NCBI GenBank assembly: GCA_029260345.1
Contig: JAJDDK010000007.1
Coordinates: forward strand, 126,226-190,225
From: Phycisphaerales bacterium
Lineage (GTDB): Bacteria > Planctomycetota > Phycisphaerae > Phycisphaerales > UBA1924
DNA: 64,000 bases
Reading direction: 5' to 3'
The translations under genes and the position numbers were made by a program. This document shows, in pieces, positions 75 to 36,456 of the stretch (the stretch's first letter is position 1; each line of letters starts with the position of its first letter). Under the pieces are notes generated by a model. The model searched no databases. It saw only the letters and a list, made by a program, of their open reading frames with translations, and was not told where the DNA came from.

Positions 75-2033
75 ATGGGGCCACGCCGTGCCGCAGTCCT
101 GATTCTCGTGCATGTGCTGATTCTGGCCCACATCATTCAATGGAAACTCACGGGCAGCACCGTCAGTCCGGTCGAGCCATCGGAATCGATGTACACGCTC
201 GAGCAAGGCCTCGTGAACGCCGGTTTCATTTTCTTCGCCGTTGCCATTCTCTCGACGCTTATCTTCGGCCGCTTTTTCTGTGGCTGGGCGTGTCACGTCG
301 TCGCGCTGCAAGACTTGTGCGGCTGGATGATGAAGAAACTCGGTGTGCGACCGAAGCCGTTTCGCTCGCGCCTGCTCATCATTTTTCCGTTGCTGCTTGC
401 GCTGTACATGTTCGTATGGCCGACCGTGAAGCGCGTCGCCGTTGTACCGCTCTTCCGCGATCTGGAATGGAATCAGGCGCTGGCGATCATCGGGGCGCCT
501 CCCGCATTTCCCGGATTTCACAACGATCTCATCACCGATGATTTCTGGGCGACGTTTCCGACAATCTGGGTCGCTATTCCGTTCTTCCTGATCTGCGGCT
601 TCGCCACGGTGTACTTCCTCGGCGCCAAGGGATTCTGCACGTACGGATGTCCGTACGGCGGATTCTTTGCGCCGGCTGACAAAGTCGCGCCGGGGCGCAT
701 CATTGTTGATCACGACAAGTGCCACCAGTGCGGCCATTGCACCGCTGTTTGCACCTCAAACGTGCGCGTTCACGAAGAAATTCGTGAGTACGGCATGGTC
801 GTCGACCCCGGCTGCATGAAGTGCATGGACTGCGTGAGTGTATGTCCAAACGACGCGCTCTCGTTCGGCTTTGCGAAGCCTGCTGTGATCAAGGGCCCTC
901 CCAAAACGGCGCCGCCAAAGCGAAAATTTGATCTGACCTGGCCGGAAGAAATTGCCTGCGCCATCATTCTGATCGCGTCGTTCTTCGCATGGCGCGGCAT
1001 CTACGGCGTGGTGCCAATGCTCATGGCGGCAGGAATCAGCGGCATCACCGCGTTCATCGCCTGGAAATTGTGGCGGATGGCGCGCGATCGCGATGTGCGC
1101 ATCATCGGCGCGCAGCTCAAACGGGCTGGCCGAATCAAGCCCGCGGGCATCGTCTTTGCGGCACTGGCCGGGCTTGCTCTCGTTGCGACGGCGCATTCTC
1201 TTTTCGTTCGCTACCACTGGTGGCGCGGTGATCTGATTGACGCAACGGTGCTGGTCGCGCGCAATGACGCCTTCAATCCTGATCCTGATGCTGTTTCTGA
1301 TGAAATGAAATCGCGCGCCCGCGAAGCGCTGAAACATTACCACCTCGCCAGCGGGTTCCAGAATGGCGGCGTAGCGCTGGCCGAGACGCCGAGCGTGCAA
1401 ATGCGATCAGCGTGGCTCCACCTGGTCGCGGGAGATCGAAATGAAGCGGTCAAGACGCTGCAGGACTTGGATGACCGATTCGGATACGCCGATACGCGCA
1501 CGCTCGACCTCGCCTCTATCCTCGCGTTTGACGGTCGCGAAGAGGAAGCGGTGGCGTATCTGGAGGACGTGCTCAAGGACCAGCCAACCTTCACGCTCAG
1601 CCGCAATCTTCTGGTTTCAGCGCGTCTCTCACGCGGCGAGACCGAAGCCGCGATCACCGCGCGGCGTGAAGCCATTGATCCCAATGACCGTAATACGCTG
1701 CGACAAGCTGCGGCGTATGCGCAGCTCGGTGGGCTGCTACTGCAATTGAATCAGGCGGATGAGGCGGCGCCGGCGCTGCGCCGTGCGTCTGAGTTGTCGC
1801 CGGACGATGCGTCGATTCAGAACGACTATGCCGTGGCCCTCTTTCTCATCGGAGACCGGGACGCCGCCGTCGAGCACATGCGCGAAGCGGCGCGACTGTC
1901 ACCCAACGATGCGCTTGTGCACGTGCGCCTCGGCCAGATGCTGATGCAGCTCGGGCGTCAAGCGGAAGCGCAGCAAGCCATGGACGACGCTCGACGCATT
2001 GATCCGTCGATCTTTGAGCCGGCGCCGCGGTAG
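75..2033 (+). CDS. Membrane polyferredoxin (NapH/MauN-like 4Fe-4S protein) fused to a C-terminal TPR-repeat domain
   Basis: ATG at 75. N-terminal TM helices. 'FCGWACHV' and 'CxxCxxCxxxCP' ferredoxin motifs (CHQCGHCTAVC, CMKCMDCVSVCP). C-terminal half consists of TPR-like repeats. Full-length high-GC3 ORF. Confidence 0.6.
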   Translation: MGPRRAAVLILVHVLILAHIIQWKLTGSTVSPVEPSESMYTLEQGLVNAGFIFFAVAILSTLIFGRFFCGWACHVVALQDLCGWMMKKLGVRPKPFRSRLLIIFPLLLALYMFVWPTVKRVAVVPLFRDLEWNQALAIIGAPPAFPGFHNDLITDDFWATFPTIWVAIPFFLICGFATVYFLGAKGFCTYGCPYGGFFAPADKVAPGRIIVDHDKCHQCGHCTAVCTSNVRVHEEIREYGMVVDPGCMKCMDCVSVCPNDALSFGFAKPAVIKGPPKTAPPKRKFDLTWPEEIACAIILIASFFAWRGIYGVVPMLMAAGISGITAFIAWKLWRMARDRDVRIIGAQLKRAGRIKPAGIVFAALAGLALVATAHSLFVRYHWWRGDLIDATVLVARNDAFNPDPDAVSDEMKSRAREALKHYHLASGFQNGGVALAETPSVQMRSAWLHLVAGDRNEAVKTLQDLDDRFGYADTRTLDLASILAFDGREEEAVAYLEDVLKDQPTFTLSRNLLVSARLSRGETEAAITARREAIDPNDRNTLRQAAAYAQLGGLLLQLNQADEAAPALRRASELSPDDASIQNDYAVALFLIGDRDAAVEHMREAARLSPNDALVHVRLGQMLMQLGRQAEAQQAMDDARRIDPSIFEPAPR

Positions 2034-2043
2034 CGCATTCGGT

Positions 2044-3429
2044 TCAGCAAGAGCCCCAATTGGCGAGCAGTTGCGCGAGGTCTTCGCCATTGACGGAGCC
2101 GCTGCCATCGATGTCTGCCGACCCAGACATTCCCCATTGCGCGAGCAAAGTCGCAAGGTCATCACCGTTGACGAATCCGTCGCCGTTGAAGTCCGCCACG
2201 CACGGCGCTTCACCGGGCGCCTGGATCATGCCGGAGACTGACGCCAGAGCGCCGGGTTTGAACAGTCCGATCGTTCCCATCGCCTCGACAGGCGGCGCCG
2301 TTGCGATGAAACTGAAGTTGTACATCGTGCCCCAACGAATCGCGTTGGCGTTCGGCATCGTCGCGAAGTCTTCCGTCGCCCATGTCACGGCGCCCGAGCC
2401 TTCGGCGCCGGCCCAGTCGGCGCTGTCGATCGCTTCCCCTGAGTGATAATCCACATCGTGGAATCCGAGATCGCTGACGTGCACGCCGCTCGGAACCGGG
2501 ACGGTGAATGAACCGGCGCTGCGGTCGCAATTCATGTTGTACACCGCGTAGTCATAGCGCCAGTCGCCATCGCCGATGTCGCTGACTCGCGACGCCACGA
2601 TGAACCGGCCACCACCTTCGCCTGTGGCGTCAACGTGCGCCATCGAAACGCTCGGGTCAATCGCAGCCCAGCCTTCGATCATCGTCGTCATCGGCGTCGT
2701 CGAGCCGACGAAATCGACCGGCGTATTTGGCATGAATCCGAAATTCGCAATATCGAGTTCGCGATACGACACATTGTTGTTCGCGGCGCCGGCGGCGGCG
2801 TCCTGCGGATGAATGTACTGGCCTTCCACAAACCAGCGAGCACCGGCATTCATGGCGGGCAGGATGTCCGTTTCCGCCACCTGAATGCGCGAGCGAATTG
2901 TGGAGGGGGTCGATCCTTCCGCCACGCTGTGCGGCCACGCAAAAGCGCCCGTCGTCGCGTTCACTTCCGAGCGCGGCCCGAGCAGTTGCGAGTTCGCATT
3001 GAGATTGACGCTGTACGGATCGGAACATCCCGGCGCGAGATAATTCAGACAAACAGGGAATGGATTCTGGCAAACGCCGCACCCCGTGTCCTGCTGAACG
3101 GCGCAGAACCCATGCTTCACCCACGCCATGCCGACTTGCTGCAGCACGCCATCTTTGAGTCGATACATGTTCTGCGCAATGACAGGGTGCTGGAATCCTT
3201 CTTGAATCCAATCGAGATTGACATCGCCTGCATTTCCTGCCGTCGTGCCGACGGAGAACGCATGAATGCCGCCACTGGCGCCCCAGTAGCCATTGGCTTG
3301 CAATGAGCAGACCCAGACGTCGGCGAACGATCCGCCTTCATCACCAGCCGGCGCCAAGGCCGCCGGTGACAAGACTGCCGCGGCGAGCAATGCCCGTTGA
3401 ATCAACACATTCATCTTTCGCTCCTTCAA
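2044..3429 (-). CDS. Secreted Cys-rich protein, uncharacterized paralog family (copy 1), C-terminal dockerin-like tandem Ca-binding repeats
   Basis: Signal peptide. Conserved core 'DVWVC…HGFCAVQQ…GC..C…PGCSDPY…IRSRLQV'. Ends 'DFNGDGFVNGDDLATLLAQWG…DGSGSVNGEDLAQLLANWGSC'. AAGGAG SD 8 nt upstream of ATG 3429. Confidence 0.7.
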   Translation of the reverse strand: MKERKMNVLIQRALLAAAVLSPAALAPAGDEGGSFADVWVCSLQANGYWGASGGIHAFSVGTTAGNAGDVNLDWIQEGFQHPVIAQNMYRLKDGVLQQVGMAWVKHGFCAVQQDTGCGVCQNPFPVCLNYLAPGCSDPYSVNLNANSQLLGPRSEVNATTGAFAWPHSVAEGSTPSTIRSRIQVAETDILPAMNAGARWFVEGQYIHPQDAAAGAANNNVSYRELDIANFGFMPNTPVDFVGSTTPMTTMIEGWAAIDPSVSMAHVDATGEGGGRFIVASRVSDIGDGDWRYDYAVYNMNCDRSAGSFTVPVPSGVHVSDLGFHDVDYHSGEAIDSADWAGAEGSGAVTWATEDFATMPNANAIRWGTMYNFSFIATAPPVEAMGTIGLFKPGALASVSGMIQAPGEAPCVADFNGDGFVNGDDLATLLAQWGMSGSADIDGSGSVNGEDLAQLLANWGSC

Positions 3430-3451
3430 TCACTGAGCGCACGGAGCGCGT

Positions 3452-4855
3452 TCAGCATGAGCCCCAATTGGCGAGCAGTTGCGCGAGATCCGCGCCATCC
3501 ACCGCGCCGCTGCTGTCGAGATCCGCCGCGCCGCCCATCCCCCACAGTGCCAGCAAGGTGGCCAGGTCCGCGCCGTCAACGATGCCATCGCCGTTGAAGT
3601 CCGCCGCGCACGGCGCTTCGCCCGGCGCCTGGACGGCAGCAGTCACACCAACTGGTGACCCTGTCTTGAACAGTCCAATCGTTGCATTTGTCGTGACCGG
3701 AGCAGCGTTCGCATCAAAACGGAAGTTGTACATGGTCGACCAGCGCAGCGCATTGGCCATCGGATCAATATCGAAACTCGTGGTGGACCACGTCACGGCG
3801 GAATCGCCTTCGGTCGCGGCCCAGTCGGCGCCGTCGTAGAGCTCGCCGGAGTGGTATTCCGCGTCATGGAAACCGACGTTCGAGAGATTGGCGCCGTCAC
3901 CGACCGGCACACTGAACGAGCCGGCGGCGCGATCCGCATTCATGTTGTACACGGCGTATTCGTAATGCCATGTGCCATCGCCGTTGTCGCTGGCGCGTGA
4001 AGCGACGATCAATCGCCCGCCGCCTTCGCCTGACACCTCAATGTGTTCGACCTGAACGGTCGGATCAATGTCGGCCCAGCCTTCGATCATCGCCTTCATC
4101 CCGATCGTTGTGCCGATTGGACTGACGGAGGAGTTGGGCGTGAACGAAAACCCGCCGATGTTGAATTCGCGGTGGCTTGCGTTGTTGTTGTCAACGTTGG
4201 CCTGCGCATCCTGCGGGTGGACGTACTGGCCTTCGACGAACCAGCGGGCGCCTTCGTTCTGCGCCGGATTCACATATTCATCGCGCACTTGAAGGCGCGA
4301 TCGAATGACCGCCGGGACGCCCGGATCACCCACGGCATGCGGAAACGGAAAGACGCCAGTTGTGGGATTCACTTCCGAACGAGGGCCAAGTCGAAACGTC
4401 GTCGCATTCAGAGCAGCGTCATACGGATCGGAGCACCCCGGCTTCAGGAAACTCAGGCAGCCGCCGGAGACCACGCAGGCGCCGCACCCAATGTTTTGCT
4501 GCACCGCGCAGAATCCATGCTTGAGCCATGACATGCCCACTTGCTCGAGCACGCCCTCTTTGAGGCGGTACATGTTCTGGGCAATCACCGGGTGCTGGTT
4601 GTTGGTGTCCACCCAGTTGAGATTGACATTGCCGGCGTTTGCCGACGTTGTGGCGATCGAAAAAGCATGGATGCCGTCGGCTTGGCCCCAGTAGGCGGTG
4701 GATGGCAGATAGCACACCCAGACGTCTGGCATGGCGCCGCCCTCCGTCGGCGCATGTGCCACGGGCAATGCATCGCGCGGACCGGCCGCGGTCGAGATCG
4801 CCGCCAGCGCGCAGGCCAAGACTGCTATTCCACTCATTCGCCCCATAGGAATCAT
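3452..4855 (-). CDS. Secreted Cys-rich protein, same paralog family (copy 2), dockerin-like C-terminus
   Basis: Collinear similarity to 2044..3429 and 5108..6550 along the whole length. GGGAG SD before ATG 4855. C-terminal 'DFNGDGIVDGADLATLLALWG…GAVDGADLAQLLANWGSC'. Confidence 0.7.
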   Translation of the reverse strand: MIPMGRMSGIAVLACALAAISTAAGPRDALPVAHAPTEGGAMPDVWVCYLPSTAYWGQADGIHAFSIATTSANAGNVNLNWVDTNNQHPVIAQNMYRLKEGVLEQVGMSWLKHGFCAVQQNIGCGACVVSGGCLSFLKPGCSDPYDAALNATTFRLGPRSEVNPTTGVFPFPHAVGDPGVPAVIRSRLQVRDEYVNPAQNEGARWFVEGQYVHPQDAQANVDNNNASHREFNIGGFSFTPNSSVSPIGTTIGMKAMIEGWADIDPTVQVEHIEVSGEGGGRLIVASRASDNGDGTWHYEYAVYNMNADRAAGSFSVPVGDGANLSNVGFHDAEYHSGELYDGADWAATEGDSAVTWSTTSFDIDPMANALRWSTMYNFRFDANAAPVTTNATIGLFKTGSPVGVTAAVQAPGEAPCAADFNGDGIVDGADLATLLALWGMGGAADLDSSGAVDGADLAQLLANWGSC

Positions 4856-5023
4856 GAATCACTCCCGATGCGATCACTTCGCAGCGACGTGCACTCGGCG
4901 CCCCGTTGCACGACCAACTCTCTGCCGCAAGGACACTTATCGTAAACGAGCGGAGTCCAGAAACATAGACCCATTCGTCAAATTAGGGAGTTAGACCTAC
5001 GACCGGATCGTATTTGGCGAGGG

Positions 5024-5059
5024 TAAAAAAAACACCGCCGGGAACTGGTCCCGGCGGTG
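5024..5059 (-). terminator. Rho-independent terminator downstream of paralog copy 3
   Basis: 11-bp perfect stem 'caccgccggga/tcccggcggtg' with 5-nt loop. Flanked by an A8 run on the + strand, which is a U-run on the minus transcript. Lies 50 nt after the stop of 5108..6550. Confidence 0.5.
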
Positions 5060-5107
5060 TCGATCAATCAGAAATTCAAACCCTCAGTCGAGGATTCTGC
5101 GGACGGT

Positions 5108-6550
5108 TTAGCAGCCGCCCCAGTTGGCCAGGAGCGCAGCAAGGTCAGCACCATTGACTGTGCCGCTGCCGTCGAAGTCGGCTGAGCCGGGGCCGCCGAA
5201 CTGGGCCAGAAGGTTCGCCAGGTCGGAGCCATCCACGAAGCCGTCTCCATTGAGATCGCCCGTACAGATGCCTTCGCCGGGCGCCTGAACCGCGACCGTC
5301 ATGTTCGAAGGCGAACCTGGCTTGAAGAAGCCAACCGTGGCGTTCGCCTGCACCGGAGCGGCATTGGCGATGAAGCGGAAGTTGTACATCGTCGCCCAGC
5401 GAATCGCGTTGGCGTTCGGGTTGGACGCGAAGCTCGTCGTCGCCCACGTCACGGCGCCGGCGCCTTCGGAACCGGGCCAATCCGTGCCGTCGTAGATTTC
5501 ACCGGAGTGATAGTCGACGTCATGGAAGCCAATGCTCGTGGCGTTCACACCGTTTCCGACCGGGACACTGAAGCTGCCCACAGCGCGGTCCGCATTCATA
5601 TTGAACACGGCGTACTCATACGACCAGAAGCCGCCACCGAGCTCTTCGGCGCGAGACGCGATGAAGAAGCGACCGCCGCCAGTGCCGAGCAAGTCAATGT
5701 GTTCGACCTGCACGGATGGGTCGATGTCGCCCCAGCCTTCAATAATCGTGCGCATGCCGACGGTGCCGCCGATCGGGGGAACTGCGGCGCTCGGACCATA
5801 GTTGTAGTTCTGAAGAGCGACTTCGCGATAGCTCGCATTGTTGTTGTCGAGCGAAGTGGCCGGGTTGTTGTCGGGAACCGCGCCGGCGTCCTGCGGGTGC
5901 ACGTACTGGCCCTGCATGAAGTAGCGAGCGCCCGGATTCATCGCCGTATCAAGATCATTGATATCGACCTGCAAACGTGATCGAATCGCGGACGAAACGG
6001 AGCCACTGCCAACCGAGTGCGGCCATGCAAAGACACCGGTGCTCGGATTCACCTCAGAGCGCGGCCCAAGCAAATTGGTGCTCGCATTGAGATCAGCGCT
6101 GTACGGGTCAGCGCAACCGGGCTGGAGGAAGCTGAGACAGCCGCCGCCACCGGGGCAGTTTCCGCAACCACCAATGTTCTGTTGCAAAGCGCAGAAGCCG
6201 TGCTTCAGCCACGACATACCAATGTGCTCAAGAATGCCGTCCTTCAGACGGTACATGTCCTGAGAAATCACCGGATGCTGCGTGCCGTTCTGAATCCACT
6301 GCAAGTTAATGTTGCCTGCATTTGCGGACGTCGTGGCGATGGAGAACGCGCGCTTGCCGCTGTTCGTTGCCCAATAGGCCGTCACAGGCAGCGTGCAAAC
6401 CCACACGTCGGGCGATGCAATGCCTTCCGGGGTGGCTTCGGCGTCCACCGGGGCGCGCGTGCTCAACGATTCAGCCGTCGCCGTCATCGCCGTGAACGCG
6501 AGCCCAAAGGCGGCCGTTCCCGCCATTCCGATTCGAATCATCTTCTTCAT
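5108..6550 (-). CDS. Secreted Cys-rich protein, same paralog family (copy 3), dockerin-like C-terminus
   Basis: Signal peptide 'MKKMIRIGMAGTAAFGLAFTAMTATA'. Shares the conserved core with copies 1 and 2. GGAGAG SD before ATG 6550. Ends 'DLNGDGFVDGSDLANLLAQFGGPGSADFDGSGTVNGADLAALLANWGGC'. Confidence 0.7.
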   Translation of the reverse strand: MKKMIRIGMAGTAAFGLAFTAMTATAESLSTRAPVDAEATPEGIASPDVWVCTLPVTAYWATNSGKRAFSIATTSANAGNINLQWIQNGTQHPVISQDMYRLKDGILEHIGMSWLKHGFCALQQNIGGCGNCPGGGGCLSFLQPGCADPYSADLNASTNLLGPRSEVNPSTGVFAWPHSVGSGSVSSAIRSRLQVDINDLDTAMNPGARYFMQGQYVHPQDAGAVPDNNPATSLDNNNASYREVALQNYNYGPSAAVPPIGGTVGMRTIIEGWGDIDPSVQVEHIDLLGTGGGRFFIASRAEELGGGFWSYEYAVFNMNADRAVGSFSVPVGNGVNATSIGFHDVDYHSGEIYDGTDWPGSEGAGAVTWATTSFASNPNANAIRWATMYNFRFIANAAPVQANATVGFFKPGSPSNMTVAVQAPGEGICTGDLNGDGFVDGSDLANLLAQFGGPGSADFDGSGTVNGADLAALLANWGGC

Positions 6551-6833
6551 CGATTTCTCTCCAATTGTTCTCGATGGTCTACCCCGCGACGAGGCCCAAC
6601 CGCACCGATGCCGTCCGCGCAGGATGATCTAGTATTCCAACACCATCCTAACACACGGCCTGCCTCGTACAATCACTGATCCCCAGAAAGAACAATTCAA
6701 AGCGATTCTCGGACTATCAAGATCGCTAGCGATCAACTGCCTTATGCGGGACATACACACCAAGAATCCCGCATTACTTCGCTGAAAACCATTATGAGAC
6801 GTTCGTCCGGCTTCGAATCACCGCGATGCTTGA

Positions 6834-7724
6834 ATGCCTGACCGCCGCATGACCACACCTCATTCCAATCAGGCACGCGTCGCCCTCGAAACCACGCTGC
6901 TCGCCCACGGCGTGCCCCGAAGCGGCGCCCTTGAATTTGCCCACGAGCTTGAAGAAATGGTCCGGTCGCGAGGCGCGGCGCCGAACACCATCGGCGTCCT
7001 GCGCGGCAAGCCACTCATCGGAATGTCCCACGATCAGATCGCTGATTTCTTGTCCCAACCCGAAATCGCCAAAGCAAACAGCTCCAACCTTGGCGCCCTG
7101 ATTCATCAGAGCCGCACGGCCGCGACCACCGTGAGCACCACGATCGAGCTGGCGCACGAACAAGGCATTCAAGTCATGGCGAGTGGCGGAATCGGCGGAG
7201 TCCATCGCGGAGCCGACCTGGACATCAGCGCTGATCTGATCGCACTCACGCGAATCCCGATGGCGGTGGTGTGTTCCGGTTGCAAGACTTTGCTCGATGT
7301 CGCCGCGACGCGCGAAGCGCTCGAAACCCTCGGTGTGCCGGTTATCGGTTTTGGGACGGATGTTTTTCCAGCGTTTTACCTGCGCGACACCAATCTTCCC
7401 GTCGATGCTCGATTTGACGACGCGAGCGACTTGGGAGTTTTTCTGTCTTCAGAACTCGTCAGAACTGGGCGCGGCGTGGTCGTGTGCCAACCGGTTCCTG
7501 CTGACGACGCGATCGTGCGCGACGATTGGAATCGATGGCTCAATGGGGCGGAAGAACGCGTCGCAAATGAAGGCGCCACTGGGCGCGATGTCACGCCGCG
7601 CATTCTCAAGGCGCTGCACGACATCTCGAACGGCGCCACACTTCGCGCCAACCTGTCATTGGTCAAAGCCAACGTCGGACTCGGCGCCGATCTTGCCGTT
7701 GCGATGTCGCGCGCTCGGTTGTGA
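6834..7724 (+). CDS. psuG: Pseudouridine-5'-phosphate glycosidase (IndA/PsuG family)
   Basis: Collinear with the PsuG family: 'ALETTLLAHGVP', 'GGIGGVHRGA…DISADL', 'VVCSGCKTLLD'. Start is either ATG 6834 or ATG 6849. Confidence 0.85.
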   Translation: MPDRRMTTPHSNQARVALETTLLAHGVPRSGALEFAHELEEMVRSRGAAPNTIGVLRGKPLIGMSHDQIADFLSQPEIAKANSSNLGALIHQSRTAATTVSTTIELAHEQGIQVMASGGIGGVHRGADLDISADLIALTRIPMAVVCSGCKTLLDVAATREALETLGVPVIGFGTDVFPAFYLRDTNLPVDARFDDASDLGVFLSSELVRTGRGVVVCQPVPADDAIVRDDWNRWLNGAEERVANEGATGRDVTPRILKALHDISNGATLRANLSLVKANVGLGADLAVAMSRARL

Positions 7725-7738: not shown

Positions 7739-9163
7739 TTAGCCCGTCCATGCAGCGAGCAACTGCGCGAGGTCCGAGCCGTTCACCACGCCATCGCCGT
7801 TCAAATCCGCTGAACCCGGTCCGCCGAACTGCGCCAGCAAGGTGGCAAGGTCTGAGCCATTGACGAACCCATCGCCATTGAGATCCGCAGGATTGCCGAT
7901 CTGAATCGAAAAGGCGCCATCACGACCGTCGGCAAGCGTGCCTTCGAAAATGATCCACTTGCCGTTGTCGCTCATGACGAAGGCGTCTTGTCCGCTGGCA
8001 ATCGTGTCGATGATGACACCGTCAATCATTGTGACGCCTTCCTGGACCAATATTTGATCGTTGAGGAATAGGCCGGTGTCGATGTCAGTGTTGGGGTCGT
8101 CCCAGTCACCGTACCACAGCACGTCGCCGGCGTCACTGATTTGCACAGGGCCGCTGCCGGTTCCAAATGACGTCAAAGCAAATCCTGGAATTCCCGGCGG
8201 GGTGTCGCCTTCCCGCATGAAGACTGCACCGTTCGCGATGATCACTTCGTCGTCGGCTGCATCACCATCGAGGTTCGCCTTGAAGACCGCGACGCCACTG
8301 TTGTTCATGTCACGTCCGCGGCTCGAAAGGATTTCGTAATTGCGCCCGGCGAGCGGCGAGGGAGAGCCCTCTTGCGCGATGAGCGTGTTGTTGATGTAAA
8401 TCACACCATCCGTCGCCGTGTTTCCGGCAAGGTCAGCAAAGAACAGCACATCGCCGTTGTCATTGAAAGCAGAATCGTGCGGCCCGGTTCCGAAGTCGGC
8501 GACGGCTTCGACCTGCCCGCTGAGCACATCGCCTTCCTTCGCAATCACCATCTCGGCGCCCGTCATCGCATTCACCACGACGATCGCCCGGTCCACGCCG
8601 GACGGGAGCGCAATATCATCCATGGACGCGATGACCATGAGCTGATTGTTGTTGTTCACCTGGACTTCAAGAAAACCGACGTACGGCGTGTCGGGAGAGA
8701 ACCCCGATGCGGTCGAGAAGTCGCCTTCCTGAATAATGAGATCCGCATTGAAGTAGACACCCGTGTCCTGATCGCTCGGCAGCATCTCGAGGAAGAGGTT
8801 GAATCCGCCGTCTCCTGAATTGTTGAGCGTGACGGAGTCGAACGAATTAATCAGTGCGCCCGGAGGACCGGACAAACCACCGAATCCCTCACGCAACACA
8901 ACACCAGCGGCGTTCAACAGCACCGTATCCTGCTCCGTGTTGGCAAAATCCGTATCCGCTTCTATGAGCCAGTCGCCGTTGTTGTTGATCGTGACATTGT
9001 CAATTCGCGTGATAAGGCCGACGCCCGGCACGCTGTCACCTTCAAGCCTGATTGCGGCGTTGATGACGCCTGCGAAACTGCCTGCAAATGCCGTCGAGAC
9101 CGTTGTGAACGCGACCGCCACGAGACTTGCGGTGTGAATCCCAAAGTTAAGATTGCGCCCCAT
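7739..9163 (-). CDS. Secreted repeat protein (beta-propeller-like ~60-aa repeats) with C-terminal dockerin-like domain
   Basis: ATG 9163 is preceded by a GAGGAG SD at 7 nt. The track ORF begins at an upstream TTG. Signal peptide. Ends 'DLNGDGFVNGSDLATLLAQFGGPGSADLNGDGVVNGSDLAQLLAAWTG'. Confidence 0.65.
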   Translation of the reverse strand: MGRNLNFGIHTASLVAVAFTTVSTAFAGSFAGVINAAIRLEGDSVPGVGLITRIDNVTINNNGDWLIEADTDFANTEQDTVLLNAAGVVLREGFGGLSGPPGALINSFDSVTLNNSGDGGFNLFLEMLPSDQDTGVYFNADLIIQEGDFSTASGFSPDTPYVGFLEVQVNNNNQLMVIASMDDIALPSGVDRAIVVVNAMTGAEMVIAKEGDVLSGQVEAVADFGTGPHDSAFNDNGDVLFFADLAGNTATDGVIYINNTLIAQEGSPSPLAGRNYEILSSRGRDMNNSGVAVFKANLDGDAADDEVIIANGAVFMREGDTPPGIPGFALTSFGTGSGPVQISDAGDVLWYGDWDDPNTDIDTGLFLNDQILVQEGVTMIDGVIIDTIASGQDAFVMSDNGKWIIFEGTLADGRDGAFSIQIGNPADLNGDGFVNGSDLATLLAQFGGPGSADLNGDGVVNGSDLAQLLAAWTG

Positions 9164-9355
9164 TGCACTGCTCCTCAATTGCGATGCAGGAATGAATTGA
9201 ACGCCTCACCGGGGCGCTCACATGAAATTGCTTCAGCCCCAGTGTACCTGCGATGCGCTCGACACCAAGAGCAAACTGAGAAACACGGCGCGATGAAACA
9301 ACGTTCATGACGCCGCGCGATCGCGCCCGGGACACGTTGCGCAACATGTGGATAC

Positions 9356-11581
9356 TTACTGATTTGAGTTCGGCGCCATGGCGCGCCACGCGGCGGCTTC
9401 TTCGGAGCGTCCGACTTTCTCGCAATACGTCACGAGCCGCGACGCCGTCGTCTGGGTGTACCGATGCTCGCGGCCGAGCGCGCCGTCGAGAATGGCGAAT
9501 CCTTCCGATGCTGCTTCGATCGCCTCGTCGTATCTCTCTTCAAGCGCCAGCGCGCCTGCGAGCAGCGACAGGGAAACGCCGATCTCCGGATGATTCGGCT
9601 CAAGGTTCTGGCGCCGAATCGCGAGGACTTCTCGGAGCACACGTTCGGCGTCCTCAGGTTGATTCATTCGGGTGAGCACCAGTCCGTAATTCGACCGCGC
9701 CGTCAACGTGTATGGATGCTCCGCGCCAAATTGGCGCTCGTGCAATGCAACGGACTCTTCAGTTAAGTGGCGGGACGCTTCCATGTCGCCGAGCGATTGC
9801 AATGTCAGCGCCAGGCTCGCGATGGTCGCGAGATTCTCTTCAGATTCATAGGCGTCATTTCGCCGACGCGCCTCCAGCACTTGCTCGAAACAATCGCGCG
9901 CCTGCGCGAAATCGCCAATTCGATACGCGGCGTTGCCAAGAAAGTGCATCCGATCAAGTGTCTGCGGCGCCTCCGCGCCGACTACTCGCTCACTCCGCTC
10001 AACGAGGCCCACCAACATCGCATGCCCCTCGTCGTACCGGCCAAGATCAAGCAGGGCTGCCGCAACCTGCGTTTCAGCTTCAAGGGTCGCCGGATCGTCA
10101 GGCCCGTTCACGACGTGAAGCAATTCCTGCGTGCGTTCAAAAGCCACAAGCGCTTCTTCGTAGCGACCGAGACCGATGTACGCGTCTCCAAGCACTCTCC
10201 GAACCGTTGCTTCGGCGCTCGGACGAAGTTCGCGTTCCGTCCCAAGAGAAGCGGCGATGTCATCGAGCAGCGCACGCACGGTGTAATCATCTTCGGTGTT
10301 CTCGACAGGGTTGGCCGCCGCCATGGCTTCGGTCAAGATCGACAGAATCTCCTGCGCCTCGGCGCGCTCCGCATCCGCCGCTGCCCGAGCCGCCACGGCG
10401 CGATCTAGAAGCACCCCCGTCACGGCGAGCGCTGCAACGAGCACCACAAACACAATCGCGACCGACGACACCAGCGCTCGATTGCGGCGAGAAAACTTGA
10501 CGAGCTGATCCCACGTGCTGGGTGGCCTCGCCAAAATTGGTTTGCTGTTGAGATGCCGCTCGATATCGGCGCCAAGTTCCGCAGCCGACGCGTAGCGCCG
10601 GTCTTTCTCTTTCGCGAGCGCCGTGCGCACAATCGTGTCGATATCGGCGCTCATCGTGTGCGAGAGCGTCCGCAGCGATGTCGGTTCGACTTCACGAACA
10701 AGCCGCGCAGCTTCGTGCAACATCTTCCCGCGCACATCGATCGGAAGCTCGCCGGTCAGTAGTTCGTACGCGATGACGCCGAGGGCGTACACGTCGGATC
10801 GTTCATCAACGGCGCGCGGATCACCGGTGGCCTGCTCCGGGCTCATGTACGCAATCGTGCCCACGAGCTGCCCGGTCTGTGTTTGCAACGTAAATTCCGA
10901 AGTGCCCGGCTCCACCAGTCGCCCAACACCGAAGTCCAGCACTTTGATGCGGCCATCTTTGGTGACAAACACATTGCTTGGCTTCAGATCGCGATGAAGC
11001 ACACCCTGTTCGTGCGCATGCTGAACGGCGGAGCACAATTCGATGATGAGCCGCAACCTCTGCGTCACGGACAATTCATGGCGCTGGGCGAATTCCGTGA
11101 TTGGTTCGCCGTCGACAAGCTCCATCGCAAAGAACGGTCGGGTGACGCCTTCCGCTTCAACACTTCCCGCATCGAAAATCTGCGCGATGCCCGGGTGATG
11201 GAGGCGCGCGAGAAGCTCCGCCTCCCGCGCCAGCCGCCGCGCAGAGACCTCGGAGCCGAAGCCCATCGAAACGACCTTCAGCGCAACAAGACGGCGCGGA
11301 TGTTGCTGTTCGGCGCGGTACACCACACCCATCCCCCCGCTGCCGAGCACGCCGACGATTTGAAAATCACCGATGCGTTCGGGCGGCGATTCAAACGTTG
11401 ATTGCAGAAATCCCGGCGTCTGAAGCGTTTCGAAGTCTTCGCGCAAAAGCTCTTCGACCTCGAACCGGAGCGACTCTTCACCGGCGCAGAGTCGCTGCAA
11501 CGCTTCGTCTTGGTCCGAAGGGTTCAATTCCGCGACTTCATGAAAAATCGCGCGGATCTGTTCGTAGCGTTCCGGCGTCAT
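9356..11581 (-). CDS. Ser/Thr protein kinase with C-terminal TPR-repeat domain
   Basis: Start 'MTPERYEQIRAIFHEV…' is the typical planctomycete STK N-terminus. Kinase subdomains 'GSGGMGVVY', 'ALK', 'HRDLKPSN', 'DFG', 'APE'. Predicted TM segment then TPR repeats. The ATG overlaps the sigma-factor stop (ATGA). Confidence 0.8.
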   Translation of the reverse strand: MTPERYEQIRAIFHEVAELNPSDQDEALQRLCAGEESLRFEVEELLREDFETLQTPGFLQSTFESPPERIGDFQIVGVLGSGGMGVVYRAEQQHPRRLVALKVVSMGFGSEVSARRLAREAELLARLHHPGIAQIFDAGSVEAEGVTRPFFAMELVDGEPITEFAQRHELSVTQRLRLIIELCSAVQHAHEQGVLHRDLKPSNVFVTKDGRIKVLDFGVGRLVEPGTSEFTLQTQTGQLVGTIAYMSPEQATGDPRAVDERSDVYALGVIAYELLTGELPIDVRGKMLHEAARLVREVEPTSLRTLSHTMSADIDTIVRTALAKEKDRRYASAAELGADIERHLNSKPILARPPSTWDQLVKFSRRNRALVSSVAIVFVVLVAALAVTGVLLDRAVAARAAADAERAEAQEILSILTEAMAAANPVENTEDDYTVRALLDDIAASLGTERELRPSAEATVRRVLGDAYIGLGRYEEALVAFERTQELLHVVNGPDDPATLEAETQVAAALLDLGRYDEGHAMLVGLVERSERVVGAEAPQTLDRMHFLGNAAYRIGDFAQARDCFEQVLEARRRNDAYESEENLATIASLALTLQSLGDMEASRHLTEESVALHERQFGAEHPYTLTARSNYGLVLTRMNQPEDAERVLREVLAIRRQNLEPNHPEIGVSLSLLAGALALEERYDEAIEAASEGFAILDGALGREHRYTQTTASRLVTYCEKVGRSEEAAAWRAMAPNSNQ

Positions 11582-12117
11582 TCGTTTGCACCAGTGTGCA
11601 AGCGCTGCTTCAGCCACGCTCTCGCCATGCGCCAGTCAAGTTGCACCGTGCGTGCAGAGACGTCCAGCGCGCGGGCCGTTTCTTCGACCGTCATGCCGGC
11701 CAGGAACCGGCATTCCACAATGCGGCTCTGGCGCTCATTCAATCGTTCGAGTTCCGCAAGCGCATCAGCCAGATCGATGGCGTCGGCGCCATCAAGCCCT
11801 GCTGCGCTTTGAGCCGCGCCGGTGAGTGTGACACGTGCGTAGTCGCCACCCCGCTTGTGCGTTCGCGCGGCGTTCGCGTGATTGATCAGCACTTGGCGCA
11901 TGGCGCGGGCCGCCGTCGCCAGGAAGTGCTCGCGATCGACAAAATCATGCTTGTTGGCAAGCTTGAGGTACGCCTCGTGCACCAAGGCGGTTGGTTGCAG
12001 CGTGTGATTGGCGTGCTGATTCTGAAAGATGGCGCCTGCGAGCGCGCGGAGCTCCTCGTACACGGCCGCCGTGTCGGAATGAGACTCCCCCGGCGATTCT
12101 GAACGCCTCTCGTTCAT
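11578..12117 (-). CDS. ECF-type RNA polymerase sigma factor (Rhodopirellula/planctomycete subtype)
   Basis: Region-4 HTH 'LNERQSRIVECRFLAGMTVEETARALDVSARTVQLDWRMARAWL'. Region-2-like 'ALVHEAYLKL'. Stop overlaps the kinase start codon. Confidence 0.8.
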   Translation of the reverse strand: MNERRSESPGESHSDTAAVYEELRALAGAIFQNQHANHTLQPTALVHEAYLKLANKHDFVDREHFLATAARAMRQVLINHANAARTHKRGGDYARVTLTGAAQSAAGLDGADAIDLADALAELERLNERQSRIVECRFLAGMTVEETARALDVSARTVQLDWRMARAWLKQRLHTGANE

Positions 12118-12183: not shown

Positions 12184-12960
12184 TCAGCTCCAGTTCGCCA
12201 GAAGCGCCGCGAGGTCCGAGCCGTTCACCACACCATCGCCGTTGAGGTCCGTCACTCCGGCGCCGCCCCACTGTGAGAGCATCGTCGCAAGATCCGAACC
12301 GTTCACAATCGCATCACCGTTGAAATCGCCAACGATCAGTTCAAGCTGCACACCATTGAGCGCGGCGCCGTCAAGCTCATCAGCGCCGGGCACGATGCCG
12401 GAGTGCGTATTCAAACGACCGTCAGCGCCGACCACTGCGATGTGCTGCGAGAACGTGACGAACTTTTCGTGCTGGCCCGGCCAGGCGCCGCCGATGATCT
12501 GCGCGCCTTCGGCCGATTGATCCACCGTTGCATACGACATTGTCGCTGGCGCGCCGGGAATCCAGCAGTACTGGGTTACGATGTATGTGCCGGGCTGAAG
12601 TTGCTTGAAGAACAGACACGTTTCGAGACCGTCGTTGAAGGTCACGAGGTAGTCATCAAGAAGCGTCTCGTCGTCACCGATGGTCGCCGGGTCGTTGGTG
12701 GACTCCAGCGCAGTGCCGCCGATGTTGCTCACGACGACCAATGTGGGATTGCCATTGAGGTCCAGGAGCGAGAAGTTGCCCGCGCCGTGCGCTGGATGCA
12801 TTGAATTCCAGAAGCCGGTCTGATCGGCGGCGCCTGCATACGTTGAGCTTGGCCCGGCGCCCGCACTGCTGAAATCAATGTTGAACGATTGGGCGTTGGC
12901 CGCCGCAGCGAACATGCCTGAAGTCAGGGTGATGCTGATGAAAAGATTTTGCAGCTTCAT
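12184..12960 (-). CDS. Small secreted protein with C-terminal dockerin-like domain
   Basis: Signal peptide 'MKLQNLFISITLTSGMFAAAANA'. Ends 'DFNGDAIVNGSDLATMLSQWGGAGVTDLNGDGVVNGSDLAALLANWS'. Confidence 0.6.
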   Translation of the reverse strand: MKLQNLFISITLTSGMFAAAANAQSFNIDFSSAGAGPSSTYAGAADQTGFWNSMHPAHGAGNFSLLDLNGNPTLVVVSNIGGTALESTNDPATIGDDETLLDDYLVTFNDGLETCLFFKQLQPGTYIVTQYCWIPGAPATMSYATVDQSAEGAQIIGGAWPGQHEKFVTFSQHIAVVGADGRLNTHSGIVPGADELDGAALNGVQLELIVGDFNGDAIVNGSDLATMLSQWGGAGVTDLNGDGVVNGSDLAALLANWS

Positions 12961-14282: not shown

Positions 14283-17111
14283 TCAGTTTGCTTTGAGCAG
14301 CGCAGGCCAATTCAAGACGAGACGAACGCTGGAGCTGGTCGTCTCGGCAACTTCGGTGTTGACGGCGAAGGATTCCTCATTCGGAAAGACATCGAACTCC
14401 ATGCTTTCGTCGTACTGATAGTCGAAGAGGGCTCGTCCGCTGTCGTGCACGAAGCCGCCGCGCTCTTCGCGCCAGGTGACGGCGATGAGGCTGTTGCTGC
14501 TCGAGACGTAGTACAGCGTTTCGCCGAGTTCCCCCCATTGCGGCATCTGTCCGCCTGAGAGTGATACGCGCCATCGCGCATCAGGCGCGGGCGCTGGAAG
14601 GCCCTCGGCACGCTCGCGCTCCCATCCGAACTGGAAGGGAACGACATACACCTGGCGCTGGCCCGATTCCATTCCCGTGTACGCAAGCCATTTGCCGTCG
14701 GGGGAGACGCGACCGTATCCCTGCTCATTCGGCGCGACGATGAGCTCAACTATCTCGCCGCCTTCGGCAGGGACGGCGACGATGTCGGCCTCGCCGGCAG
14801 AGATGAACGATCCCCGATGGCAAATGATCCACTTTCCGTCGCGTGTCCAATCTGTTGGCTGAAGGCTGGTTTCAACGGATGTTGCAGGGACTAGTAATCG
14901 CTCGGCGCCACCGGCGACACGACGAACGAGCAGCCCGCTATTTCTGCCACCCGACGCAAAGAGTCGGCCATACGCGATGTGCTCCCCATCAGGCGACCAG
15001 ACGGGAGAGACCTCTGAGCCAGCCTCGAAGGTGATGCGCCGAGCAGCGCGGTCGGTGCTTGGCACTACTCCGTCCAGAGTCGACCAATCGGTTTCTTCGG
15101 TGTAGACCTGGTAGACCCAAATGTCGAACGTCGATTCGGATTGGTCGTTGGGGCGCCGCCCGCTAATGGCGACGCGGAGACCATCGGGTGAAATCGCAAG
15201 GCTGTTCTGGAGCATGTCCTCGACGAATGTCAGTCGCGGGCGTCCATCGGCCGTGATGGTTGTTGCGCCGGTGACTTCGCCGATGCCAGGTATGAGCGCC
15301 ACCGAATTCTCTCTTTGTCGCGCCGGATCGACTCCAATGTGAACGAGCCGCCCCGTTTCCGACGCGCTGAATGCGTTGTGCCAGGTTGAGCGGTCGCCCG
15401 TGACGCCATGCACGATCGGGACTGGATCACCGGTGATGACGCCGGAGTCAATGTCAACCGGCGCGGCGACGATGGCGTCGTTGCGAAGGAAGAGAAGCTG
15501 GTCGCCGACGATCTGTCCGCCGAACGGCGATGAAATGAGTTGGGTGTTCACAGTTCCATCGAGCGAACCGAGATAGATCGCATCACTCTCACTGCGGTCG
15601 GGGTCATGGCTGACCGCGATGTAGATGAAGCGGTCGGTCCCAGCAATGGGCATGGGCCATCGATGGCTGGTGTGCCGAGTTGCATCCACGAGGGTGAGGG
15701 GCGTTGGCTCGCCGCCGCTGGCAGAGACTTTGAAGAGGCCCGTCTGATAGGAAGGACTGAAGACAATGGTGTCTCCGTCGAGCCACGCGCCGCCGCGACC
15801 GCCGCTCGCTTCGCACAGGGTCCGAACCATGCCGGTCGCAAGATCGAGCCGGCAAAGCCGGGATTCAGCGAAAAAAGCAATGGAGCGGCTGTCTGGGGAC
15901 CAGAAAGGAAAGATCGCACGGTTGGCGCCTGCGAGGCGCCGCGCGTCCGCGCTCTGAAGGTCGCGCAGCCAAAGCCATTGTTCGCCCGATTCGTCGCGTG
16001 CGGCAAAAACAATGCGCGACCCATCCGGCGAAATTGTGGCGGGGCCGGCCAGATCGCCATAGCCAATGAACCGAGTCTGAGGCGCGGGCTCAAGTGATGC
16101 GAAGACGACGTCTTCGATTGACGCCGGCCTCATGAACCGCGTGGCGACAACCGCGCCGGCAACACCTAGCGCCGCAGCGAGGAATGCGACAACCACCATC
16201 GCTACGACGGGAGTGCGGCTGGCTGAGTTTTCAAAGAGCGCCTCGGCAGGTCGCTGCAACTCAATGCGCGCTTCTCCTATTGCCTGGAGGCGCTCGCGCC
16301 GATCGCGCACAAGGCATCGCTCAATCACGCGGCGCACATTCGTCGGTGTTGCGGGCGGCAAACGGTCGACATCAATTTCTTTATGAAGCACAGCGCCGAT
16401 CGAGTCGCTGATCGTTTCGCCGTGAAAAGGCGAAACGCCGGTGAGCATCTCATAGAGCACCACGCCGAAGGACCAGATATCGGTTCGCTTGTCGACTTTC
16501 CTGCCGCGCGCCTGCTCGGGGCTCATGTAGGCGGCGGTGCCGAGGATCACGCCGGGAATGGTCGGTGAATGACGCGCCGGTGAAGTCAGCGTCGGGCTCT
16601 GGCTCAAGGCCGTTGCGGAGGAACTTGATTCCTCATCTGTGCGCGCCAAGCCAAAGTCGAGAACCTTCGCTTGACCATCCGGCGTGATGATGATGTTGCC
16701 GGGCTTCAGATCACGATGAATGACGCCCGCTTCGTGCGCGGCCTCCACGCCTGACGCAATCTGCACGGCGATTTCCAGAGCTTCGTCAAGGGGGAGCGAA
16801 CCACGGTCGATGCGATCTGCAAGGGTCTCGCCTTCGACGAACTCCAGGACGAGGTATCGCGCGCCATCGAGTTCTTCGACACCATAAATCCCGGCAATGT
16901 TCGGATGATTGAGCGATGCGAGCGTTCGAGCCTCGCGCTCAAAGCGCGCCAAACGATCCGGATCGTGGGCGAGGAGCTCAGGCATGGCCTTGATAGCCAC
17001 TGCCCGGTCAAGACGCGTATCACGGGCGAGGTAGACGACGCCCATGCCGCCGCGACCGATTTCTCGATCGATGACAACAGAGCCGATTTGTGCGCCGGGG
17101 GACAAACTCAC
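14283..17111 (-). CDS. Ser/Thr protein kinase fused to TolB-like/PD40 WD40-type beta-propeller domain
   Basis: GTG start. Kinase motifs 'GRGGMGVVY', 'HRDLKPGN', 'DFG', 'SPE'. Central TM segment. The C-terminal ~600 aa carry repeated 'SPDG…IAF/VSPDGKWLAY' PD40-like blades. Confidence 0.8.
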   Translation of the reverse strand: MSLSPGAQIGSVVIDREIGRGGMGVVYLARDTRLDRAVAIKAMPELLAHDPDRLARFEREARTLASLNHPNIAGIYGVEELDGARYLVLEFVEGETLADRIDRGSLPLDEALEIAVQIASGVEAAHEAGVIHRDLKPGNIIITPDGQAKVLDFGLARTDEESSSSATALSQSPTLTSPARHSPTIPGVILGTAAYMSPEQARGRKVDKRTDIWSFGVVLYEMLTGVSPFHGETISDSIGAVLHKEIDVDRLPPATPTNVRRVIERCLVRDRRERLQAIGEARIELQRPAEALFENSASRTPVVAMVVVAFLAAALGVAGAVVATRFMRPASIEDVVFASLEPAPQTRFIGYGDLAGPATISPDGSRIVFAARDESGEQWLWLRDLQSADARRLAGANRAIFPFWSPDSRSIAFFAESRLCRLDLATGMVRTLCEASGGRGGAWLDGDTIVFSPSYQTGLFKVSASGGEPTPLTLVDATRHTSHRWPMPIAGTDRFIYIAVSHDPDRSESDAIYLGSLDGTVNTQLISSPFGGQIVGDQLLFLRNDAIVAAPVDIDSGVITGDPVPIVHGVTGDRSTWHNAFSASETGRLVHIGVDPARQRENSVALIPGIGEVTGATTITADGRPRLTFVEDMLQNSLAISPDGLRVAISGRRPNDQSESTFDIWVYQVYTEETDWSTLDGVVPSTDRAARRITFEAGSEVSPVWSPDGEHIAYGRLFASGGRNSGLLVRRVAGGAERLLVPATSVETSLQPTDWTRDGKWIICHRGSFISAGEADIVAVPAEGGEIVELIVAPNEQGYGRVSPDGKWLAYTGMESGQRQVYVVPFQFGWERERAEGLPAPAPDARWRVSLSGGQMPQWGELGETLYYVSSSNSLIAVTWREERGGFVHDSGRALFDYQYDESMEFDVFPNEESFAVNTEVAETTSSSVRLVLNWPALLKAN

Positions 17112-32964: not shown

Positions 32965-34230
32965 TCAGGTCCAGTTGCTCAGGAGAGCCGCGAGATCAGC
33001 GCCGTTGATCACATCATCACCGCTGAGGTCTTCTGGAATATCCGCGCCCCACAACGAAAGCAGTTGGGCGAGGTCGGCGCCATTGACCATCCCGTCGCCG
33101 TTCAAATCACCAACGATCGCAGCGTCACAAAGCTCCCATCGGCGCAGCGGCGTTGTGCTGGAGCCGCCGGGCGTCGTTGCATTCGCGCCGACGAGCAGTG
33201 CGTTGTCGTACGGCGCCGTCGCTCGCGCCACTGACGTCAACCCATCGCCAAGCGCGGACCACGCATCGCCGTCAAAGATCGCAATGCGGTTGGCCGGCTG
33301 ACCGCCAATGGTGGTGAATTCGCCACCGACCACCAGTTGAGCGCCTTGCGCCGAGTCGATCGTGCTGATCGTGTGCACCGGCCCATTGGCGCCTCCGGCA
33401 AAAGTGGTCCATGTGGTTCCGTTCCAACGCGCAAGATGCACGGCGGCCGCGGCGCCGGACATGGTGAAGTCGCCACCAGCGATCAGATCGCCTTCGTATT
33501 CCGCCAGCGCTCGCACAATTCCATTCAACCCGGCGCCAACGGCCGACCATGCGGCGCCATTCCACTTCACGATGTTCGCCGAAGGTTGCCCGCCGGCGCC
33601 GAGAAACGATCCGCCCACAAAGATCGCCTCACCGGCGCCATCGTTGTGTGGTTGCAATGCAACACCGGTCTTGGCGCCGCCCTGCAGACCCGTCGCCAGC
33701 GCAGTCCATGTCGCGCCATTCCACTGTGCGATCCCTGCGGCGCCGGCGCCGCCAGCTGTCAGGAATGTTCCCGCCGCGTAGAGGCGTTCACTATTTCCAT
33801 CATGAAAAGAAGCCAGCGCGAGAACATCGCCACCGAGTCCGGCGCCGAGCGGCGCCCATTGAGCGCCATTCCATTGTGCGATGCGATTGAGCACCGCCGC
33901 GCCCGATGATGTGAATTTTCCGCCGGCGAAGATTGCCCCCTGATGTTCGGCCAACGCGAACGCGGCGTCGTCAAAGCCATCGCCGAGCGAAACCCAGGCG
34001 TCGCCATCGAACTTGGCGACAAACGGCGCTGGCTCGCCGGCCATGCTCGTGAAGGCGCCAGCGGCGTACGCGGCGTTCTCGGATTCATGAAAGACCAATG
34101 CGCGAACGGCGCCATCGGCGGTGGATTTGTCCTGAAGGGGATCCCACGCCGGTTCGCAAGGCTGGGCGACTGCCACAGCCGGGAAGAACAAAAGTAAGGC
34201 GGAGAACGCTCGTCGGGGAGTATTCAGCAT
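32965..34230 (-). CDS. Secreted beta-propeller-type repeat protein ('WNGxxW' repeats) with C-terminal dockerin-like domain
   Basis: Signal peptide 'MLNTPRRAFSALLLFFPAVAVA'. ~7 repeats 'IAQWNGAQWAPLGAGLGG'. Ends 'DLNGDGMVNGADLAQLLSLWG…DDVINGADLAALLSNWT'. Alternative start ATG 34260. Confidence 0.65.
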   Translation of the reverse strand: MLNTPRRAFSALLLFFPAVAVAQPCEPAWDPLQDKSTADGAVRALVFHESENAAYAAGAFTSMAGEPAPFVAKFDGDAWVSLGDGFDDAAFALAEHQGAIFAGGKFTSSGAAVLNRIAQWNGAQWAPLGAGLGGDVLALASFHDGNSERLYAAGTFLTAGGAGAAGIAQWNGATWTALATGLQGGAKTGVALQPHNDGAGEAIFVGGSFLGAGGQPSANIVKWNGAAWSAVGAGLNGIVRALAEYEGDLIAGGDFTMSGAAAAVHLARWNGTTWTTFAGGANGPVHTISTIDSAQGAQLVVGGEFTTIGGQPANRIAIFDGDAWSALGDGLTSVARATAPYDNALLVGANATTPGGSSTTPLRRWELCDAAIVGDLNGDGMVNGADLAQLLSLWGADIPEDLSGDDVINGADLAALLSNWT

Positions 34231-36283: not shown

Positions 36284-36456
36284 ATGGCACAGAGCGAAAT
36301 GTGACGTCCGAGAAACACGGGGAGACAACTCGATTTCACTGCGGCATAGCGGAATTGTCTTGTTCAATTTCGTGTGAGCGGGTACTTTTTTAGGCGGAGC
36401 GTGCTGTAGTGCGCGTTTCGGGAACAATTCATCTGACCTCGTGGGGACGAGAAAAC

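Follow-up and report, generated by a model that had tools for sequence, protein, structure and literature searches.

A probable remote lysyl-oxidase-like domain in a family of predicted secreted proteins with dockerin-like tails from Planctomycetota

The lysyl oxidases (LOX; Pfam entry: PF01186) include animal LOX, the enzyme that cross-links collagen, and LOXL1-4 (PDB 5ZE3) as well as prokaryotic enzymes such as Haloterrigena HTU-LOX. In human LOX the residues K320 and Y355 form the lysine tyrosylquinone (LTQ) cofactor, and these two residues together with three copper-binding histidines are the criteria of catalytic competence used by Grau-Bove et al. (PMC4448552). In LOXL2 the loop between the lysine and the tyrosine is spanned by the disulfides C657-C673 and C663-C685, and a structural calcium is ligated by D549, L550, E722, D724, N727 and N728 (PMC5899467). 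The only LOX-family structure that we found is that of a zinc-bound precursor, with the lysine and the tyrosine 16.6 Å apart (PMC5899467), and the formation of the cofactor and the nature of the active state remain open questions for the field. The one prokaryotic LOX with a biochemical characterisation that our literature search found needs Cu2+ and oxidises many amines, for which its authors suggested a role in nitrogen availability (PMC6452851). A second described system that bears on the present locus is the 'planctosome', which Andrei et al. (2019, PMC6461901) proposed as a surface complex of cohesins and dockerins in freshwater members of the Phycisphaerae. Here we analyse a tandem array of three paralogous genes, W1, W2 and W3, in a 64,000-nucleotide stretch of DNA from a Phycisphaerales bacterium (Planctomycetota; assembly GCA_029260345.1, contig JAJDDK010000007.1, positions 126,226 to 190,225), hereafter the window. 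The core of their products is very probably a remote lysyl-oxidase-like domain, in which the two cofactor residues, a pair of disulfides and some of the calcium ligands of LOX have been retained.

The array lies on the minus strand and comprises three open reading frames (ORFs), W1 (2044..3414, 456 amino acids from an ATG at 3414), W2 (3452..4855, 467 amino acids) and W3 (5108..6550, 480 amino acids). A hidden Markov model (HMM) of the N-terminal domain finds only these three copies of the family in the window (W1, E = 5e-105; W3, E = 3.8e-102). The three proteins align over their full length with small indels only, at pairwise identities of 59-61%, which bears out their description in the initial annotation as tandem, collinear paralogs; the core motifs that it listed are present in all three, although not strictly invariant as it had held, since W3 deviates with GCADPY and GTGGGR in the paralog alignment. 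All share the same order of parts, namely a hydrophobic N-terminal leader, a LOX-like domain, an immunoglobulin (Ig)-like domain and a dockerin-like tail, and the leader, which resembles a signal peptide, would mark them as secreted. In W2, whose residue numbers are used throughout, a hydrophobic signal-peptide-like segment, MIPMGRMSGIAVLACALAAISTAAG..., and a low-confidence linker make up residues 1-39 (4739..4855, minus strand, as are all the following features of W2), the LOX-like domain spans residues 40-278 (4022..4738), the Ig-like β-sandwich residues 279-411 (3623..4021) and the dockerin-like tail residues 416-467 (3455..3610). The predicted model of W2 has a predicted local distance difference test (pLDDT) score of 90.5, with residues 1-38 below 50.

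Sequence libraries do not name the region of residues 40-411. Pfam and NCBIfam scans of W1-W3 and 60 relatives returned dockerin and EF-hand matches only, and searches against PDB sequences with profiles built from 3 and 60 sequences returned only dockerins and calmodulin. The predicted structure of the N-terminal domain, by contrast, has the fold of the LOX catalytic domain. The initial annotation had spoken of an unrecognized family; this stands in so far as no library names the core, and gave way once the structure was predicted. It had also pointed to a Pfam or HHpred match to a characterised family as what would make the proteins ordinary, and here the fold and the motifs do match LOX, while at the sequence level no family-level match was obtained. 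When the full-length model was used in a Foldseek search of the PDB, the matches were weak, generic β-sandwiches with template modelling (TM) scores below 0.2. An animal LOX alignment, when used to scan GTDB genomes, gave no matches, since its motifs were specific to animals.

To compare the two families at the level of profiles, a LOX profile was built from 21 catalytic domains (supplementary File S5 of Grau-Bove et al. 2015, PMC4448552) that span animals, Actinobacteria, Deinococcus-Thermus, Proteobacteria and Bacteroidetes, and a human LOX sequence, checked against 5ZE3 (E = 1e-46), was included. Alignment of the family N-terminal domain to this 21-sequence profile with hhalign gave a score of 33.3 (P = 2.9e-4, probability 40%) in a single collinear alignment of 158 columns, which takes in both domains end to end. 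Against this score, column-shuffled LOX profiles (n = 98) reached a mean of 13.4 and a maximum of 19.4, block-shuffled profiles in which local motifs were kept (n = 99) a mean of 16.5 and a maximum of 30.0, and the reversed LOX profile scored 13.7. A family profile of 266 sequences recovers the same alignment (P = 4e-4 to 2e-3), whereas with a two-sequence LOX profile the comparison was not significant (E = 0.13), significance being attained only with the diverse LOX profile. Taken alone, the hhalign score is suggestive and not conclusive; it does come, however, from one targeted comparison that an independent structural match had prompted. In the resulting register the PD44V segment of the family falls on the 'PDL' start of the LOX domain, N73-x-G75 on its N-x-G, YRL on its Y-x-L, H88 on a copper-binding histidine, K112-x-x-F-C116 on K320-x-x-F-C, G-C141-x-D143-x-Y145 on G-C-x-D-x-Y355, and N224-N225 on the terminal NN of LOX. 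HMMER independently places K112..FC..GC-D-Y145 on K320..FC..GC-D-Y355.

Many of the residues that this register brings together are also highly conserved. By HMMER and hhalign alike, K112 and Y145 align to the LTQ precursors of human LOX (K320/Y355) and LOXL2 (K653/Y689), and translation, alignment and conservation define around them a segment, K112-HGFC116...C124..C127.....C133.......GC141-S-D143-P-Y145 (4421..4522), which we interpret as a putative LTQ dyad with a disulfide-stapled loop. Among 266 relatives with an average identity of about 45%, K112, Y145, H88 and H113 are each found in 264 and D143 in 265; N73, G75, W81, P89, C124 and C141 are present in every sequence, and R187 and Y211 each in at least 264. 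K112 is absent only from P0121 (860 amino acids) and P0135 (696 amino acids), which are also the only sequences without Y145 and in which Y211 is missing too. Both proteins contain internally duplicated units, and in every copy the lysine is replaced by S, W or R and the tyrosine by C, E or S, with the remainder of the domain highly conserved despite these losses. They may represent an inactivated or repurposed sublineage.

The cysteines of the loop tell a similar story. C116 and C133 are jointly present in 139 and jointly absent in 126 of the 266 sequences, with a single discordant case, and C116 and C141 belong to motifs that in LOXL2 contain C657 and C685. From this covariation, and the invariance of C124 and C141, we infer that C116-C133 and C124-C141 are the equivalents of the LOXL2 disulfides C657-C673 and C663-C685. 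A further cysteine occupies exactly one of the positions 48 (39 sequences) and 72 (227 sequences) in all 266 relatives (codons in W2 at 4712..4714 and 4640..4642, respectively), which suggests a disulfide partner that shifted between neighbouring strands; W1-W3 use the minority position 48, within the motif 'DVWVC'. The proposal in the initial annotation of a disulfide-stabilised secreted fold, for which it advised a search for conserved cysteine pairs, is thereby supported. Part of a putative calcium site is likewise discernible, as D44-V45 align to D549-L550 of LOXL2 and N224-N225 to N727-N728; counterparts of E722 and D724 do not emerge from the alignment. The substitution D44N occurs only alongside N224D (4 of 4 cases), the pattern that would be expected of two ligands on one ion.

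Taken together, the likeliest single mechanism, to which we would give about an even chance, is that the proteins are active quinone-dependent amine oxidases tethered at the cell surface. Such a protein would be secreted by means of its signal peptide and would combine a remote homolog of the LOX catalytic domain of ~235 residues with an Ig-like β-sandwich and a calcium-binding dockerin-like tail, by which the mature form would be held on the surface, where a cohesin scaffold like that of the 'planctosome' might receive it. K112 and Y145 would give rise to the quinone cofactor, and primary amines, be they lysine side chains of proteins and peptides or free amines, would be converted to aldehydes with release of ammonium and hydrogen peroxide, in the service of nitrogen scavenging or in order to process or cross-link proteins outside the cell. 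The metal for cofactor formation would have to be bound at a rebuilt site. The two-domain unit contains exactly three near-invariant histidines, which are H88, H113 and H335, the last of these (251/266) being the histidine of the YHSGE motif in the Ig-like domain, and it is conceivable that a three-histidine metal site has been rebuilt from them. A possible likeness exists to the topaquinone copper amine oxidases, which share a tyrosine-derived quinone, the oxidation of primary amines and the release of H2O2. One of their copper histidines comes from a remote stretch of the chain (PMC5899467), and a rebuilt site in the present proteins would require the same; their catalytic fold is not that of the present family. 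All three paralogs retain every putative active-site residue. Because these old copies have all kept the putative active site, it is probably their substrates or partners, and not their chemistry, that set them apart, and the earlier remark that the proteins are possibly enzymes finds support as a possibility. A wider version of this proposal, which we put forward only tentatively and consider doubtful as a whole, sees in the family a very large, undescribed bacterial branch of the LOX superfamily that makes or uses a Lys-Tyr quinone in the absence of the canonical three-histidine copper site and operates on a cohesin-dockerin scaffold beside a dockerin-tailed haem peroxidase. Either the metal site would then be drawn from H88, H113 and the histidine of the Ig-like domain, or copper would play no part in the formation of the cofactor, and the oxidation of amines or protein lysines and a peroxidase consuming the resulting peroxide would constitute one extracellular system.

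Several observations weigh against an active amine oxidase, and some against the link to LOX itself. Where LOX has the copper motif H-x-H-x-H, the family has N-Q-H88-P-V, in which the middle histidine alone is kept (codon 4592..4594; the 266 relatives have N, T, P or S at position 86 and V at position 90), and an alignment gap of ~26 columns falls where the ES2 hairpin of LOXL2 holds the copper site. Copper-site mutants of LOXL2 form no LTQ (PMC5899467), and activity is thereby called into question more than by anything else. H335 is replaced in ~10 otherwise intact members, which detracts from it as a metal ligand. The two sequences lacking the lysine and the tyrosine may belong to one single lineage, and the covariation counts given above are not phylogenetically independent, such that Fisher P values (3e-5 and 3e-8) overstate their significance. 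Gene neighborhoods offer no clue to a substrate: with the exception of L004, a locus from another metagenome, the four other loci share no conserved neighbours with the array apart from copies of the family. With regard to homology, PF01186 matches neither W1-W3 (E <= 1) nor the 60 relatives (E <= 10), the family HMM assigns only 6.4 bits to human LOX, the HH-suite probability for the link lies at 16-40% across profiles, and the case consists of several moderate lines that are in agreement. As regards the copper site, the LOX of C. merolae, an accepted member of the family, also has no three-histidine motif (PMC4448552), and the same is true of the Patulibacter LOX sequence in our alignment.

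The loss of the copper motif would also be accounted for if the LOX fold were retained without catalysis, as a disulfide-stabilised binding or adhesion module on a cohesin-dockerin complex, with the lysine, tyrosine and histidines serving ligand binding or folding. The partner domains of the relatives are mostly of the binding or anchoring kind (GBD_T9SS_assoc, fn3, HYR and Big), the β-sandwich core resembles many carbohydrate-binding and adhesin domains, and the P0121/P0135 sublineage lacks K and Y but otherwise retains the fold. Such a module appears on the whole unlikely when set against the active-site-like polar set of K112, H113, D143, Y145, H88, R187 and Y211, which persists at the low overall identity of the relatives, and against the disappearance of K, Y and Y211 jointly and not piecemeal. 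The fusion of some members to cytochrome c and pyrroloquinoline quinone (PQQ) dehydrogenase modules also argues against a purely adhesive role and leads to another alternative, in which the LOX scaffold supports a different redox chemistry, either as a dehydrogenase whose electrons go to cytochrome c or a different acceptor in place of O2, or with a different metal or cofactor, which would make the LOX copper site unnecessary. P0178 and P0206 are joined to GSDH, a PQQ-type glucose/sorbosone dehydrogenase propeller, and to cytochrome c, and P0224 and 2 of 61 others to cytochrome c, fusions which in the case of P0178, P0206 and P0224 hint at a redox role. Other quinone-cofactor amine dehydrogenases pair with haem c, and their cofactors do not arise by copper self-processing; in the present family, too, the copper talon is missing. 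However, redox fusions amount to only ~5 of the 69 long members scanned, W1-W3 have neither a redox partner domain nor an adjacent cytochrome gene, and no cofactor-maturation genes are conserved nearby, so that we hold this alternative to be quite unlikely. Finally, the resemblance to LOX might be convergent or fortuitous and the proteins an unrelated family of secreted, Cys-rich proteins, as initially proposed. The lack of any Pfam, NCBIfam or PDB sequence match to LOX, the position of LOXL2 outside the Foldseek top 50 for the full-length model and an HH-suite probability below 50% speak for this view, which we nonetheless regard as very improbable.

Beyond the copper site, an amine oxidase of the kind we favour would differ from the known lysyl oxidases in several ways. 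The family has no detectable match to PF01186, its ES2 copper hairpin is deleted with a single histidine left of the motif, and a conserved histidine directly follows the lysine (K-H). It always adds an Ig-like domain with the YHSGE motif, and the dockerin tail takes the place of the SRCR domains or propeptide of LOX. It occurs in Planctomycetota, a phylum outside the bacterial phyla with LOX that are listed in PMC4448552. The Ig-like domain (conserved motifs GFHD..YHSGE and NANALRW) shows a generic, Ig-like resemblance to the YcnI/DUF1775 copper-binding domain (PDB 7ME6 and 3ESM), to which pilin domains score equally. Copper binding by this domain in the manner of YcnI was considered and set aside, as the likeness is at the level of the fold only and the domain is internal, with no free N-terminal histidine.

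The tail consists of two tandem calcium-binding loop-helix repeats of the D-x-N-x-D-G type, reading DFNGDGIVDGADLATLL ... DLDSSGAVDGADLAQLL. In W2 it begins with Cys416 and ends in a C-terminal Cys, and in W1 it terminates in WGSC; cysteines occupy the first and last Cys columns of the tail in 34 and 35 of the 60 relatives, respectively. The scores of W1-W3 against curated dockerin models stay below the cut-offs, both for Dockerin_1 (PF00404; 18.6-21.2 bits against 22.9) and for the GC-type dockerin NF041540 (21.6-21.8 bits against 29), although some relatives and other proteins of the window do clear curated dockerin cut-offs. A profile of 60 family sequences matches solved dockerins in the PDB sequence search (E = 7e-7), and Dockerin_1 is matched at E <= 10 in 57 of the 60 relatives. 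The dockerin-like tail noted at the outset is therefore real with respect to its calcium loops and its profile match, while W1-W3 themselves do not reach the curated cut-offs.

Such double calcium loops stand at the end of nine ORFs in the window, namely 2044..3429, 3452..4855, 5108..6550, 7739..9178, 12184..12960, 17223..19052 and 32965..34260 on the minus strand and 36409..38265 and 62000..63583 on the plus strand. Outside the array the N-terminal parts of these ORFs are mutually unrelated and include a haem peroxidase, a Rax2/DUF5122 β-propeller, NxxGxxAF 'choice-of-anchor' repeats and several regions without a match. Since nine ORFs of the window carry such tails, the tail would appear to be a genome-wide anchoring device with nothing peculiar to the LOX-like family, and the genome is suggested to encode a large dockerin-displayed surface proteome. 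This is reminiscent of the planctosome, as dockerin-tailed secreted proteins are found in Phycisphaerae-type genomes and the P-domain, TSP3, HYR, dockerin and reprolysin belong to its parts list; a neighbour of the single family copy at locus L001 encodes a reprolysin-like peptidase. The planctosome model differs in that it holds peptidases and not oxidases, and no cohesin was seen among the scanned ORFs of the window, so that the link is one of analogy. Surface-tethered amine oxidases would bring an oxidative, ammonium-releasing step to the protein-degrading complexes proposed for Phycisphaerae.

The family is large. A word-indexed search gave more than 4,600 matches, of which those with names are all 'hypothetical protein' from Phycisphaerae or from metagenome-assembled genomes of Planctomycetota, and an exhaustive phmmer search with the N-terminal domain alone retrieved 2,077 clusters (50% identity) with E <= 1e-3, of which 1,571 had E <= 1e-10. 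The family is apparently undescribed, and our search of the literature found nothing that ties lysyl oxidase to Planctomycetota. Many relatives are proteins of 500-2,000 amino acids in which the two-domain unit is joined to extracellular modules such as the proprotein-convertase P-domain, TSP3, HYR, fn3, PPC, Big and GBD_T9SS_assoc. If the relationship is confirmed, the LOX fold would be placed in ~2,000 clusters (50% identity) that are now 'hypothetical' and extended to Planctomycetota, where it has not been reported. A compact bacterial relative with a confident structural model, the Lys-Tyr dyad and a different metal site would amount to a natural experiment on which elements of the copper site can be dispensed with.

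The triplication appears to be old. In a neighbour-joining tree each paralog of the window is joined to a different partner, in every case a protein from another metagenome, and this agrees with the nucleotide identity of 63-66% between the paralogs and with third positions near saturation. This identity and the absence of long near-identical tracts rule out a recent duplication or gene conversion; as synonymous sites are saturated, a ratio of nonsynonymous to synonymous substitution rates (dN/dS) is not estimable. The diversifying selection or antigenic variation that had been invoked for the array finds no evidence here, the paralogs being old, near saturation and alike in keeping the putative active site. 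Tandem expansion of the family is recurrent: locus L003 carries three copies in an independent array, one copy each is found at L001 and L002, and the L003 and L004 arrays group by locus in the tree. Positions 2883-9206 of L004 are syntenic with 75..7724 of the window, with the same flanks (Indigoidine_A-like and Fer4/TPR) and two copies in place of three. Copy number hence varies between related genomes. At L004:9611-10948 there is a GSDH gene, whose equivalent position would lie past the left end of the window. The dockerin-coding 3' ends of W1 (2042..2225) and W2 (3450..3633) are 80% identical over 184 nucleotides, as compared to 66% for the genes overall, which might be due to tighter constraint or to a local gene conversion in the distant past.

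Each gene of the array has its own Shine-Dalgarno sequence, as had been noted initially: GGAGAG at 6557..6562 for W3, GGGAG at 4862..4866 for W2 and AAGGAG at 3421..3426 for W1, 6 nucleotides before the ATG at 3414 (all on the minus strand). The W1 ORF can be extended upstream to a TTG at 3429 (461 amino acids). The true start is most likely the ATG at 3414, because AAGGAG would be internal to an ORF that began at the TTG and because P0009, the database entry for this protein, has 456 amino acids. The gap of only 22-37 nucleotides between the stop of W2 and the start of W1 makes it probable that the two are co-transcribed. In the spacer of 252 nucleotides between W3 and W2, an intrinsic-terminator-like hairpin (5031..5061, minus strand; a stem of 13 bp with 9 G-C pairs, followed by a T-run) lies 47 nucleotides past the stop of W3, and nothing else was recognised there. 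With this hairpin and the short W2-W1 gap, the array is probably transcribed as two units, one of W3 and one of W2 together with W1. The flanking genes, which code for a 4Fe-4S/TPR protein and a pseudouridine-5'-phosphate glycosidase-like protein, are unrelated to the family.

Elsewhere in the window, two tandem genes at 34463..36283 and 36409..38265 on the plus strand encode animal-type haem peroxidases (PF03098; E = 4e-152 and 6e-149). The second of these carries a dockerin tail, and it lies ~30 kb from the array, a location of note near a family that would putatively produce H2O2. LOXL2 and peroxidasin pair in animal basement membranes, and the proposed pairing of an oxidase with a peroxidase echoes this. 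Two large ORFs lie near the array on the minus strand, one (9356..11617) kinase-like with TPR-like repeats, as judged from its sequence only, and the other (14283..17111) with a Ser/Thr protein kinase domain and PD40 repeats recognised by Pfam.

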